A stretch of DNA of 64,000 bases from Anolis carolinensis (Eukaryota), in the NCBI RefSeq assembly GCF_035594765.1, contig NC_085842.1:270491749-270555748 (forward strand). Direction: 5' to 3'. Made by a program: the position numbers and the translations under genes. The notes beneath the pieces are model-generated. The model saw only the letters and a list, made by a program, of their open reading frames with translations, was not told the DNA's origin and ran no database searches. Shown in pieces: positions 12,858 to 42,550 of the stretch (positions are counted from its first letter, which is position 1; each line of letters starts with the position of its first letter).

Positions 12858-13208
<351 letters not shown>

Positions 13209-34390: not shown

Positions 34391-36589
34391 TCATGCCTGT
34401 GGGATTCTGGGAGTTGTCATCTTCAAAAAGTATTTTTAGAGAATTTTGCCCTTTTCTCACTAAACATTTCAATAAACCTAGTGATAGGAACTTCATAAGA
34501 CAAACAGAAATAGATGCTACATGCAATATCCTTGTATGTTACAACTGGCATTTAAAAAGTGTCCAGTTGTCTGACATCTGCAGTTATATTTTCTGTAGAA
34601 GCTGGTGGTCTGATCACTTTTCTTTGTACAAGTGTTTGGGTGTTTGGCTCAATTTCTATTTTTTTTTTTTTTTTAGAAAATGTACAAGACAGATGTTTTT
34701 GAGTTTCTGTCAACATTTATTGCTGCAACTTCTGCAGCTGGCATCCTCATGTTTCTTGCTTCAAGATATCAAAATCTTCCACTTTTGTCAGTACGTTGAC
34801 CCTGCTGATGATTAAATGTGGAGATACAGCAGACTAGGTGAGATCAAATGTTACCAGCAACTTAAGTAATTTCCTACAGCTACATAGCAAAGCAATTTAC
34901 TCAGGATGAATGCTTGAGAAACCAGGTATCAAGGATGAGCAAGTAACAAATGTACAAGACTAAGTCCTCATGAGCAATCAGATTTAGACACAATTTGACA
35001 TTTAATTCTTCCATTGAAAATGGAGTCATCACAGAGGCACAAACATTCTTTGAGTGCGTAGCTTCTGAAGGATTCTTTTGTGTGTGAAATAACTAGTCTG
35101 AATGTGGATTTTTTAAAAAAATAAATAAAAATAAAACAGCAATAAATACTTTAAAGAACTTTTGTCAGTACATTTAATTCCTTTTTCAGGATCACATTCA
35201 TTCATACTTTTTGTTGGCTCATTACATTTCAGGAGACTTTTTCAATAGCATTTATGTTAATGTGAAACTTTTTTCTGTTTGCATTGTGAGAAGAATATTA
35301 ATGCTTAATACTGCATTTACCTGCCTAATCTACATACATTTGTGTTGTACTGTAAATCACACTAAACCCTACAGGGGAAAGGCTCGGCTCTGCTAACAAC
35401 TAATAGGCTATCTTTTCTTTTGACTCTGCAAATTGAGAAATATTGCCTGTGGCAAACATAATGGGAAACTGCATTTTTAATGCTCCCACACAGACTCATT
35501 TCTTTAGAAAGAAGGAAGCAGATGGCTGTTCTTAAAAATGAAACTTCCCAAATCTCCAGGGTTGACATAGGGTATTAGAAATTTTGGTGCTTCTGGCTAT
35601 CAGAATTAAGATTTGAGGGTTAGATGAGGTCATGTGGATCTTGGATTTGACTAATGAAAATGGTATTGTGCTTGAAATAGCCAAAGGCAAATTGTTGCTA
35701 TAAATACTTTCAGAACTCCCCAAAGAGCTTATCCTTATAAGTAATTTAGTAATACTGTCTGAACCTGAATTTCAAACTTATCTCATTTATGATGAGGATG
35801 GTTCATCTCTCTGCTCATTTTTTGTTCTTTGATGCTGCCGACTATGGGAGAGTGGGTTTGCTTGGCTGGGTTTTGAGACTTCTAGGTATCTATTCCAGTT
35901 TTGTAGACAGCTAATTTTTAGAAAGAGAAAAACGCTTGGATCAGATTTCATTCTCCCAGCAAGGAATGACATTCTAATGGAGCTAATATTTCTACTTGGT
36001 TATTTTAAGACGAAGCAGGTGCGTCTAGGTTAGTTCCCATCATTCAGCATGTTGGGTTTACATCTGGCCTTGTGACATTATGGCAGAGAGAAGGGAATCC
36101 TCAAATAAGCTATTCAGTATTGTAGATGGTTTGCCATAGATAGACTAAGAAATGGAAAGAGAGAAAAATCACTTAGGAGAGAAAAATAAATGCAACAAGG
36201 ATACATTTATTTGTCCCTGCCACAGCTGCTTGGAGAATAAATTATGATAATCCTCTTTCAAGGGATATTTTGAGTGGCCATAGAGCAGGACCTGGATATA
36301 CAAAAGACTAAGAACATTGCTTACTGTATCTGTCTATCAATGGCTGTAGTTTCATTTGCCTTTTTCAGAGATACTTCAACATTAATTTCATTTTATATAG
36401 AAGAATTATAAATATGATGTATGTATATACAGTGAAGGGTGAAGGAGAGTCAAACAGCCCCTTGAAATATTCTATTTTTTAAAAAAATGGGGAAAGATTT
36501 TTCCAAAGTAGCAAATCATCTAGTTGTGACCCAAGAGTATCTCCATCTCATAGGAGATCTTTCTCTAATATGAAACCAAGGTGATTCAG

Positions 36590-37200: not shown

Positions 37201-39409
37201 TATGGAGGTGTTTAACCAGATGAGTGCTTCCTTGTAGAATGTCACCCCTTAATAGTACATTGCAGAAGTGATGCCAAGCTACAGACATGATACCTTTGTT
37301 TTAAATAAAAGAAGCAAAGAAAGGTGAGGAGAAAGAAAAAGAAAGAAAGGCAGGTAGATAGACTGTGAAAATTGCTCTGTATGAATGTTCCTGCATATGT
37401 GCTGCTATGTATGTATATCTAGTCTGTGGGACCACTAAGAATTTTAAAGTATTGTATCTTTTTTTCAGAACCTAGATTGGGGGAAAGGTTTTAAATAATA
37501 GATTTTTTTAACCTCTCAAAACCATACAAATAATTGCAGTAAAAATGTTGTCATTTGTGGTATAAAGGGTTAGAACTAGCCCAGGGTTTAATCCAATATG
37601 ATGTTTGCTGCCTTTTGTTGTGGTAGAAAGAAAGCCAATGGAAATTAATGTCTTTCTGTTTTATCAGAGGGGAAAAAACACCAGGTAATATGCAGAACAG
37701 TAAATCTCATGTTCTCTCCCCCCCCCCCACCTTAAAAAAAGAAGAAGCAATGAATAGGTTCTAAGGTTTGAATGTAAACACTAACACTCTGCTTTTGAAT
37801 ATTCCAAAAACTCCATTCAGTGTCATTTGTAAAGTCATTCCCAAGGCTGGATGGAGCAGGAAATAATCAAATGCACTTTTTTGCTTAGGCTAACAGAGGA
37901 AGCAATTTAGTTGTGTCTCACATCCAAGTTTTCAGGTAAAGAATACAATGTTCCTATCTTGTTAAGCAGCCTGCTCCAGTCTGAGAAGGATTTGTGTAGT
38001 CATCATGGGCCACAGGAAGAACCCAATTTCCTGGAAGCCCCTGCAGAGTACAGTTCTGTGCCCTGTAACACATCAGTTACTGTAGATGTCATAGAGCCCC
38101 CCCCCCCCAAGCTTTGATTTAGTGGAGCTCAGACAGCTGTTAGCACTTCTTAACTGCTTGTCAGAGTATGGCACAGACCTGGGAAGCATCACTGCTGTAC
38201 GGTTGTGTTTGTGATTTTAAAAGACACTTTAATGCATGTTGGTTTTTCCATTTGAACCTCTGCTTCACTTTTTCTTGGTTTCTTCCTCTCCCTCGTAAAC
38301 CTATCTATCTTTTTTCAGAAAATATCAACGTATGGAGGGAGGAGTGATTCATAATGCTTAAATCAGGGAAAATATAAGGAGAATGAAAAAGGAAGAAAGC
38401 GAAACAGCATCATGCAACTTTAAGTTTACAATATGCATTGTGGTTGGGGGAGAAAAGATCAAAACCATGGAATACGTGGAAATATTTGGAATGAGCTAAA
38501 ATGTTAGGTGATGACAATTACCCTTGTTTTGTAAAGCAGCACATGTTTTCTTTAAAGAGCAGGTCTTCTCTTAAATCCCCATAAGCCCCACTTACTTGAA
38601 GGTTATGGCTTTGGGTTATTGGTAGACTGTGTGTCATCAGGGTCCATTATAAGTCTGTCATAAACACCATCGCTCAGTGCCTTATCTCAATGGCATTTTT
38701 AGTCTTTTAAGTCCTCAAGTTTACTCAGCCCTTCCAAGCCAACTAGCTAAGGCAGGGCATTCATGAATTGTGGCATTCATCTTCTAGTGAATAGATTAGT
38801 TTTGTTGTCTCTACTTCTGCATCCTTTCTTCTTGCTGAACAGTATATTTCACCTTATCTACTGTATCTTTGCAGCATGTTGTCATCAATAACAGCAGTTC
38901 ATTAAATGGCATATCATTTTGAAATGTATTTGTCGTGCAATGCTTTTGACACGAAATAAATAAATAAATTAAATGGCATAATCTCAGTTATATTATCTGT
39001 ATCCACTGGTATACTCCTAAACCATCTAGACAGAATGACACATAGACACAAAACATTCTATTTTCCTAAAACAGTCTAGGCCACTGCTTGGAATATTAAA
39101 TAAAAAGTTACATCACACAATAATAGAATACTGTTCATTAATTTCTTGGCAAACTAATATTCATGTTGTTTTGTTAGTCCTTAGCAATTTGAGATACATG
39201 AAAGCAGATACATAAATCTCTTTCTCATAAACGAAGATATGTACATTTCACATCATCACATTGTCTGGGATATATATTGCCATAAAAATACACAGAGGAG
39301 GAAATTATATATTTTTCAGTGATAAAATTGTTTCACATTGCCTCTGAATGAAGAAGCAACATTATTTTGTTAATACAAATGTATTAACTTCTTAGGATAT
39401 TATGTGTTA

Positions 39410-39640: not shown

Positions 39641-41180
39641 TGTCCAAAGTACAAAGTTCAGTATTGATTTACTCTAGGACTCAATTATGATCTGCAGCAT
39701 TTAATGAATTTTATTAAATGAAACTTCTACTTCAAGTCACTTTTTGATCCTGGTCTGCACATATCATTTAGCACCAAATACTTCCTAAAATCTAAGGCCT
39801 CTTTTGAATCTCAGGTTTTGCATCATTTTTACATATTTTTTTTCAGTGCTAATACTTGGGTTGAATCTTTTGTAAAATTAATGATTCCCCAGAAATTTCC
39901 AATGGAAGAATGAGAGAAGAGACAACATTTGTTATATTTGCTAGTTTTTTTCTTTGTACAATCACCCTTAGAAAATCTGTTCCAAGCAGTTGATAATAAC
40001 TTTAAAGCATAGTGAGATGACACAGGGAGTTACAGGAGGAAGGAAGAATTGGAAAAATTACCCCTCTTTCTCTTGTGGGAATTTCTGCTGAATGTTATTC
40101 CCTCTATGTAAGTGGAAGGAACTCTTTGGATCCAATTCCTTATCCCCTGAACAAAGATGTCTAATTCTGGCAGAAATCAAAATATTGATCAAGCTGAACT
40201 AGCAACATAAAGTCTTCAGCCCCATCAGAATTCTGTGCATTGTTACTTTTGACTACTTATGGAAAGGATGTGTTTGCCTGTGAAAGTGATGGGTAAAAAT
40301 GATTTTACCCTGCTAAGTATTTGAAAGAAGGTCACGAGAGTTGGATCTTAACCTTCTGCATTAACCTCTGTGCCTAGAATACTGATTTGCGCATTCATGA
40401 AGTCCTTACAAAACAGCTTTTTCCTCAGTGTGTACATGCTTGTTGAGTGCCTTGTGCGTTTAACTTTCCTTATAGTTTAAATTCAAGGGAAAAAACTGAC
40501 AGCTGACAAGAAGACTGGTCTAGAACCACTGCTCCCAGAAATATTGCTTTTCTAGGTGCAGGAGATGATATAATTGAGGGGATTTTTTGCAGCTTGAAAT
40601 GGTACAGTCCTTGCATAATTTTCATAGTGTTTCAATTGATTCTAGAAAAGCAAGCATTTTGATTTTTGATTGGCTTATAGCAAAATCCTGTTTTTCTGGC
40701 CTTATCCATTGCCATAATTATTTATTATTGTTATTGCCATAATTATATTCCTCCTTGCTGCAATCCTGAAGAAATTTCTCCTTCCCAGGCTATTGATTAG
40801 CCTCAGGTAGAAGGTATATACTGACATCCAGAAAGTTGCATTTAGTTTACATTTACACATACTCTGAATTCCAGTTTACAAGTCACAATTGTAGAGATTT
40901 TGTTTTTCTTTTTTGGAGAAGCATGTTTGTGGTCAGTGGGCCAATTTTGTGACTCCCGGCCTCCCTTATCATCATCTTTTTTTTGTATTATTACCTAATT
41001 TATGAAGAAAAAACAGGGAAGTTATAACAGTTTACTTGTTATTCAAATGATTCCAAACATTTACGTTCTTGCTTTATTTGTGTGCTGGAGTTGTGTTACT
41101 TTGCGAAAAGAAGAATGTTGGGAATTATGTTTGTAAGACAAAAATTTACCATGTGTCCCCTTCCATTTTCTTCTCAACAG

Positions 41181-41249
41181 CCTCTGCAATCCCAGATAAT
41201 AATGGAAGGAGGTCCTGTCTAAAGCTGAAAGTCTTTGTACGACCTGCAA
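41181..41249 (+). CDS. EFNA5: Ephrin-A5 exon 3 (69 nt)
   Basis: Encodes (S)SAIPDNNGRRSCLKLKVFVRPA. Acceptor ttttcttctcaacag ends at 41180; donor gtaagt at 41250. Phase 1 matches the end of exon 2. Confidence 0.97.
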
Positions 41250-41596
41250 GTAAGTTCTTTAGCTCTTGCTTTAGAGGGTGGCTTTATAGCGCATGCTTTG
41301 TTTGGTCTGGTAAACAGCAGTGAAACTTCTTTTTTACTTCTTAAATTCTGTGTGGTATCTGTTCTGTATAGCGGCATTTTTTCTGTTGATTTCACCATAT
41401 CTTTTATCATTTTTTCACAAAGCTTTTTTCTTGTTTTAATTACATACCAGTTGCTAACTTGTTGTTTCTTATTCTGTTGTACAAAAAGACAATTGTTGTG
41501 GCATTTGGAGGCGTGCCACAGCTAAGATATAAATACATACATATAATAGAAGGAGAAATCAGATAGTTCAACAAAAACAAGGAAAATGGGGAATTT

Positions 41597-41760
41597 NNNN
41601 NNNNNNNNNNNNNNNNNNNNNNNNNNNNNNNNNNNNNNNNNNNNNNNNNNNNNNNNNNNNNNNNNNNNNNNNNNNNNNNNNNNNNNNNNNNNNNNNNNNN
41701 NNNNNNNNNNNNNNNNNNNNNNNNNNNNNNNNNNNNNNNNNNNNNNNNNNNNNNNNNNNN
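41597..41760. other. Assembly gap (164 N)
   Basis: Run of N. Confidence 1.
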
Positions 41761-41910
41761 GCCTCTGTCCCCCTGATGCCTTGCTTCTCTTTCCCTCTTT
41801 CCTCTGCATGGTTTGCATGGTAAAATGACTCTGCTTTTGCTCATTTCTCGCAGTGCTAATATTGCTTATGATATATCTCATTTGCTAATGCTAGTTTCCT
41901 CTTGTAACAG

Positions 41911-41922
41911 ATGTGAGGCAAA
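41911..41922 (+). CDS. Candidate 12-nt EFNA5 microexon (adds four residues, ...VRQN...)
   Basis: tttgctaatgctagtttcctcttgtaacag|ATGTGAGGCAAA|gtatgc. Phase 1/1, frame-preserving, no stop codon. Confidence 0.4.
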
Positions 41923-42550
41923 GTATGCTTTTTTCCATGACAGCTTATTTACTCGAACATGACATCCCAAAGTTAAAAGAATTAGTAGTATTCTGTCCCC
42001 ATTCCCACCTCGTTTTTATAGTAAGTTGCTGCAACACAATATCCATTCAGGAAGTACCTATGTAAGAGAGAAAATGTGTATGTGTATATAAAAATATTAT
42101 TTGTGTATTTGTTTGCTGTGTTCATTTAAAAAATCTAAATTTCTGGGCGTTCTGCCAACAACATGCAGCAGGTGAAATAATGTTTTCCTAAATACTATTC
42201 TCTCATGGGTATCAATTTTTTTTGTTCATATTGCACCCTTTGCAAAGATGTCACTGTTTGAGCTATGTGACTTCACAAGTATCCAGAAGAGTCTGATGAG
42301 TATAATCAAAATCACTGTCAGCTTTAAACCAATGAATTTTTTCCTGGTTATGATCTGTCCTTCTGTGAACGTGGAGTAATATGTAGAATAATCCCTTTGA
42401 TATGAGTGGATCCATATTGGATCAGAACAAAGAACTATCATCCAAAATCCAAAATTATGTTTATATAGTGGTCAACGGGTTCCTTATGGGAAGCCATAAG
42501 CGGGGCATGAAAGTATCTGCACACTCCATTTTGTACTCTCAAGCAACTGA

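Follow-up and report, generated by a model that had tools for sequence, protein, structure and literature searches.

A conserved TGCATG-containing block beside a candidate 12-nt exon in the EFNA5 gene of Anolis carolinensis: a probable Rbfox-type enhancer of cassette exon 4

Introduction

According to excerpts of PMC3408466, exon 4 of the ephrin-A5 gene (EFNA5) is a known cassette exon, and its skipping gives rise to a long and a short isoform; those passages are silent on the cis-element that controls it. Rbfox proteins, in the part of PMC11874969 consulted, typically activate splicing from a downstream position and repress it from an upstream one, and the cassettes activated in this way carry paired UGCAUG elements with CU- and U-rich neighbours in the proximal downstream intron, conserved between lineages. 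In the case of the SRRM3/4 neural microexons, 74–79% have a UGC between the branch point and the AG (passages of bioRxiv 10.1101/2024.09.17.613571). Brain microexons are described, in portions of PMC4317164, as usually highly conserved within the exon itself, and TGCATG around alternative microexons as enriched in the downstream flank. Amphibian ephrin-A5 proteins, in the form of database models, contain optional, in-frame inserts in the linker at the junction of exons 4 and 5.

Here we describe a window (the whole stretch of 64,000 nucleotides of Anolis carolinensis DNA that was analysed, from contig NC_085842.1) that carries EFNA5 on the + strand. An earlier note on this DNA had proposed a neural-type 12-nt microexon at the same junction as the amphibian inserts, between the Eph-binding domain and the GPI anchor, with a pair of TGCATG elements among its splicing signals. 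EFNA5 exon 4 shares with the Rbfox-activated cassettes a UGCAUG pair in the proximal downstream intron, with a CU-rich neighbour and conserved between lineages; unlike those cassettes, its control by the pair is predicted from sequence, and exon 4 itself would lie inside a run of Ns. The gene and the cassette are those of the described exon 4 skipping system, and both forms occur among squamate records. The candidate microexon resembles the SRRM3/4 microexons in being 12 nt long and in frame, with a UGC between branch point and AG and a CU-rich stretch upstream, but differs from those in the excerpts of bioRxiv 10.1101/2024.09.17.613571 and PMC4317164 in that its splice sites and peptide are not conserved in the outgroup locus compared, in that no TGCATG follows it and, by a crude count, in its moderate donor. 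The amphibian inserts, which may or may not be homologous to the 12 nt of the lizard, are much longer.

Results

Exon 2 of EFNA5 (12887..13179, 293 nt, + strand) encodes the ephrin domain, with up to 100% identity to ephrin-A5 records and a match to PF00812. Exon 3 is located at 41181..41249 (69 nt, + strand), and the coding part of exon 5 at 50612..50733 (+ strand) contains the end of the linker and the hydrophobic GPI signal. The exon 3 peptide agrees with a Sceloporus record at 23 of 24 aligned residues and the exon 5 peptide at 40 of 41, the mismatches lying at the intron edges. Both the assignment to EFNA5 and the motif enrichment reported in the earlier note are correct. Exon 3 contains one extra Asn codon (41197-41202, DNNG), which is common to the Sceloporus record and missing in lacertid, bird and mammal records. 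No tblastn match to exon 4 was found anywhere in the readable sequence of the window. A peptide at 34798-34812, DPADD, resembled the end of exon 4 and was rejected, since it lies upstream of exon 3 and lacks tblastn support. In intron 2, positions 38007-38163 form a 169-column match to positions 750-916 of the outgroup locus (69%, E 1.5e-10), a conserved non-coding element. Intron 4 contains high-copy interspersed repeats at 42620-42720, 45430-45540 and 47080-47500, with very deep read cover by multiple contigs, and an Rfam search of 40900-42500 gave 0 matches.

The sole outgroup EFNA5 locus compared, L001, was the one locus obtained from 593 pattern hits with a protein query spanning exons 3, 4 and 5 (P0157). 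The first pattern scan, which yielded it, covered 54 of 64 parts; further scans for vertebrate loci gave 0, and 0 of 600, and six prokaryote or metagenome contigs returned by another scan were taken as chance matches. L001 comprises exons 3 and 4 with the intron between them, followed by 1.6 kb of intron 4, and, judging by its exon peptides, which match bird and turtle records and differ from squamate ones, is a non-squamate amniote. The lizard window has a run of 164 Ns at 41597..41760. Since the collinear segment of L001 between the edges of this run is 163 nt long and contains the 81-nt exon 4, we place lizard exon 4 within the N-run, with a donor that would lie near 41727, some 34 nt short of 41761 and roughly 183 nt upstream of the acceptor of the candidate. 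The readable part of intron 3 (41250..41596, + strand) is identical to L001 at 261 of 347 positions along its length (~75%), with about 40 near-invariant nucleotides around 41431-41471. Such conservation throughout an intron is the expectation around a regulated cassette and counts in favour of an enhancer of exon 4, and the conserved stretches of intron 3 are likely to be further regulatory elements of the same exon.

Against a background identity of 53%, obtained with the same aligner on 60 pairs of unrelated intron pieces, conservation downstream of the N-run peaks at the motif core and drops to background at the proposed branch point and acceptor. The CU-rich pyrimidine stretch at 41761..41800 (+ strand) is partly conserved (27/40). 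The core at 41801..41870 (+ strand), which contains both TGCATG elements (41805 and 41814), further TGC/YGCY motifs and a CTAAT with its A at 41859, is identical to L001 at 61 of 70 positions (p ~1e-9 against the 53% background). The following stretch, 41871..41910 (+ strand), is poorly conserved, with 7/20 in the proposed branch region (41871-41890) and 10/20 in the acceptor region (41891-41910); it holds the proposed branch point at 41888, UGCs at -28 and -22, a TAG at -18 and the acceptor. Identity is 9/12 in the 12 nt themselves, 6/8 in the donor region and 50/100 over the next 100 nt. Both TGCATG hexamers are intact and identical in L001, the two species compared, where they stand 79 and 88 nt beyond the donor of exon 4 and are collinear with the window; the pair therefore occupies the proximal intron downstream of an alternatively skipped exon, placed in the window by way of L001.

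All of the sequence features described in the earlier note (the two TGCATG, the CTAAT, the acceptor, the 12 nt and the donor) are present. The acceptor TAACAG ends at 41910 and is followed by ATGTGAGGCAAA (41911..41922, + strand), probably a pseudo-exon, and by the donor GTATGC (41923..41928, + strand). The 12 nt lie in frame between phase-1 junctions without a stop and would read NVRQN after exon 3, as had been proposed. The pyrimidine tract of the earlier proposal exists, yet this long tract lies 100–150 nt upstream of the acceptor. Between the tract and the acceptor lie two other AGs, a CAG whose last base is 41853 and a TAG whose last base is 41894; used with the same donor, the TAG, at -18, would give a 28-nt frameshifting exon. 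The candidate donor matches 6 of 9 positions of the donor consensus, a crude count rather than a MaxEnt score, by which exons 3 and 4 score 8 and the constitutive exon 2 also scores 6. No GCATG occurs within 300 nt downstream of the candidate.

With its 12 nt, preserved frame and canonical AG/GT, the candidate falls within the 3–27 nt class of SRRM3/4 microexons, and a TGC at -22 directly follows the branch-like A at -23. The AG-3n-GT skeleton itself is ordinary: a scan for AG-(3–27 nt)-GT without a stop, with a pyrimidine fraction of at least 0.7 and a donor of at least 6/9, found 18 in about 50 kb of EFNA5 introns, the candidate counted among them. It is the only one of the 18 with a TGC cluster. 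This cluster is unusual, with 10 TGC in the 150 nt upstream of the acceptor, a count reached by 0 of the 48,680 other overlapping intronic 150-nt windows (mean 2.2), while two TGCATG per 150 nt are found in 0.45% of intronic windows. The matching 150 nt of L001 also contain 10 TGC, so the TGC richness is independent of the lizard splice sites. Six of the 10 lizard TGCs are conserved in L001, all of them at -57 or further upstream; the TGCs at -48, -28 and -22 are among those without conservation. L001 has no counterpart for about 12 nt of the lizard sequence, within which lie the proximal UGCs and the CTAAT of 41885-41889; to the eye, these nucleotides look like a local repeat of the TGCTAAT further upstream.

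Conservation of the AG, the 12 nt and the GT, whose lack the earlier note had named among its grounds for refutation, fails in the only non-squamate amniote compared: in the best alignments no AG or GT of L001 stands opposite those of the lizard, and the would-be peptide differs. Exon and donor together are identical at 15 of 20 positions (p ~0.04), and a CAG-12 nt-GT also occurs in L001, offset by 2 nt and preceded by the conserved CTAAT and an AG-free stretch of 41 nt. The donor of this L001 skeleton, AAT|GTTGCT, matches 5 of 9 positions, without the +3 purine and the +5 G, and about 8% of shuffles produce such an AG-12-GT near the site. The 2-nt shift puts the shared bases into a different reading frame, and the peptide is thereby lost. 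We read the shifted skeleton as residual homology rather than a shared exon, as far as one outgroup can indicate. That the two are forms of an ancient, conserved but unannotated sauropsid or amniote microexon, with boundaries displaced by 2 nt from one lineage to another, is highly improbable: the conserved CTAAT, the AG-free pyrimidine stretch before CAG, 12 nt and GT, and the 15/20 identity speak for it, but the poor L001 donor, the lost peptide, the lack of a 4-residue insert in bird, turtle and mammal records (among the matches listed) and the high conservation usual within brain microexons in portions of PMC4317164 count against it.

We collected and classified 348 ephrin-A5 proteins, mostly predicted models, which can miss microexons, from clusters that were partly listed (e.g., 15 of 34 and 15 of 615); 289 have the exon 5 motif and 59 lack it. 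Exon 4 is joined directly to exon 5 in 177 of the 289 and exon 3 directly to exon 5 in 76, with squamates in both sets. The remaining records comprise 18 from frogs with a 19-aa insert (P0071, P0072, P0074, P0076, P0101, P0113 and P0216-P0227), 11 from salamanders with a 42-aa insert (P0062, P0069 and P0206-P0214), three single models with inserts of 7, 14 or 15 aa, and four unassigned. A 4-residue insert occurs in 0 of the 289 records (among the matches listed, birds, turtles and mammals included), and a [DN]VRQ motif likewise occurs in 0 of the 289 within the same matches. Selection by species name gave 17 squamate records, 14 of them with exon 5, and 0 of the 14 carry an insert. The absence of the 4-residue insert from protein records is modest evidence against the microexon. 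By these records and the one outgroup, the exon and its splice sites are not conserved across vertebrates.

The frog and salamander inserts are unrelated to each other. Both sit directly before exon 5, in models that include exon 4 and in models that skip it, and neither has a match in the window. An N-L-[TS] glycosylation sequon is present in most of the frog inserts. D/N-V opens both the lizard candidate (41911-41916) and the salamander insert, a likeness of two residues that may reflect chance or a shared acceptor.

Among the 24 sequencing runs listed, 18 contain sequence words of exon 5 or the 3'UTR; none of those listed is recorded as RNA, and 14 of the 18 are guessed to be RNA. Contigs of 4 of the 18 runs were placed on 40900-52600; these leave exon 3 uncovered, as well as almost the whole of exon 5 and the 3'UTR, though the runs contain those words, and exon joints are thus not visible in a contig set without exon contigs, whichever way the transcript is spliced. 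A contig of run X14 (depth 9.7) continues unspliced over 41831-42083 with 0 differences and confirms the sequence; it is pre-mRNA or DNA, as that run covers much of the intron.

The MicroExonator supplements contain no Efna5, but the control genes Apbb1 and Epha5 are absent from them too. The zebrafish eLife supplements searched, without a positive control and with one file outside the search, contain no efna5; the human brain micro-exon supplements, likewise with one file outside, contain no EFNA5, and these are partial lists in which APBB1 is present and ITSN1 absent. No paper joining EFNA5 with a microexon was found in the literature searched, which lay outside subscription papers and VastDB, and none of the listed matches on microexons and ephrins concerns EFNA5 by its title or the start of its abstract. 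PMC4930328 and bioRxiv 10.64898/2026.01.30.702498 were set aside, since the parts seen concern the EphA5 and EphA4 receptors. Nor did the literature searched yield data on EFNA5 from Rbfox binding or knockdown experiments, or anything on the control of its exon 4, subscription papers, VastDB and several supplements lying outside the search.

Discussion

We favour, with a probability of roughly two in three, the reading that 41761-41870 is a conserved Rbfox-type enhancer of EFNA5 exon 4 and that the adjacent AG-12 nt-GT is a lineage-restricted pseudo-exon, spliced seldom or never. The TGCATG pair follows exon 4 and precedes the candidate, a position that makes an enhancer for exon 4 its most likely function. 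Hence, the earlier interpretation is retained in part: the block is a real conserved element, but its motifs are better placed as a downstream element of exon 4. As signals for the microexon the TGCATG motifs fit less well: the conserved pair stands upstream of the candidate, a usually repressive position.

In the mechanism that we propose, Rbfox-type proteins would bind 41761-41870 just downstream of exon 4, perhaps joined by MBNL/CELF-type proteins, which prefer YGCY/UGC motifs. Bound Rbfox would promote the inclusion of exon 4, raising the 228-aa over the 201-aa form, and inclusion would thereby set the length of the linker between the Eph-binding domain and the GPI anchor; the 12 nt would be unused in splicing.

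A functional neural microexon of the lizard lineage is unlikely, though it survives best among the alternatives. It supposes that the enhancer block, already in place, acquired a new branch point and UGC through a short insertion, and that SRRM3/4 includes the 12 nt in neurons, adding four residues (VRQN/D) to the ephrin-A5 linker. The lizard layout is good for such an exon, with the branch-like A at -23, the UGC directly after it and 12 nt in frame; the upstream intron of about 183 nt, measured from the predicted exon 4 donor, also fits, and the candidate alone among the 18 skeletons carries the TGC cluster. Frogs (18 records) and salamanders (11 records) have their own optional inserts at the junction, so the site tolerates insertions. 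However, none of the 14 squamate records with exon 5 carries the four residues, the TGC cluster is accounted for by the exon 4 element, the donor scores 6/9 against 8/9 for exons 3 and 4 (constitutive exon 2 also having 6), the upstream TGCATG pair would tend toward repression, and the TAG at -18 would compete for the same donor.

Decidedly unlikely is a decoy or noisy cryptic exon, recognized at a low level, including through the TAG at -18, from which no meaningful protein would be made and which would instead tune exon 4 splicing or mRNA output. Consistent with it, the first AG after the conserved CTAAT (41859) is the TAG at 41894, 35 nt away, whose selection would define 28 nt with the same donor; but this TAG falls within the poorly conserved stretch, and the candidate, here as in the comparison with SRRM3/4 microexons, is known from sequence alone.

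The candidate microexon is, at the level of these comparisons, unproven rather than disproven. Were it real, a major axon-guidance ligand would contain a rare and young microexon, its birth traceable to one insertion: about 12 nt inside an old Rbfox enhancer would have recruited 12 intronic bases to make a de novo lizard microexon. It would then represent a third independent tetrapod gain at this junction, after the 19-aa insert of frogs and the 42-aa insert of salamanders, and splicing would have tuned the length of the ephrin-A5 stalk, close to the GPI anchor, repeatedly. In the passages seen of PMC4594553, ephrin-A5 is shed by ADAM10, and the cut site is not mapped there.

Under the preferred reading, in which the block is an enhancer of exon 4, the result is useful but ordinary. 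Paired UGCAUG elements downstream of a cassette exon are a textbook arrangement, and the conserved block at 41761-41870 would give a name to the likely cis-element for the switch between long and short ephrin-A5.
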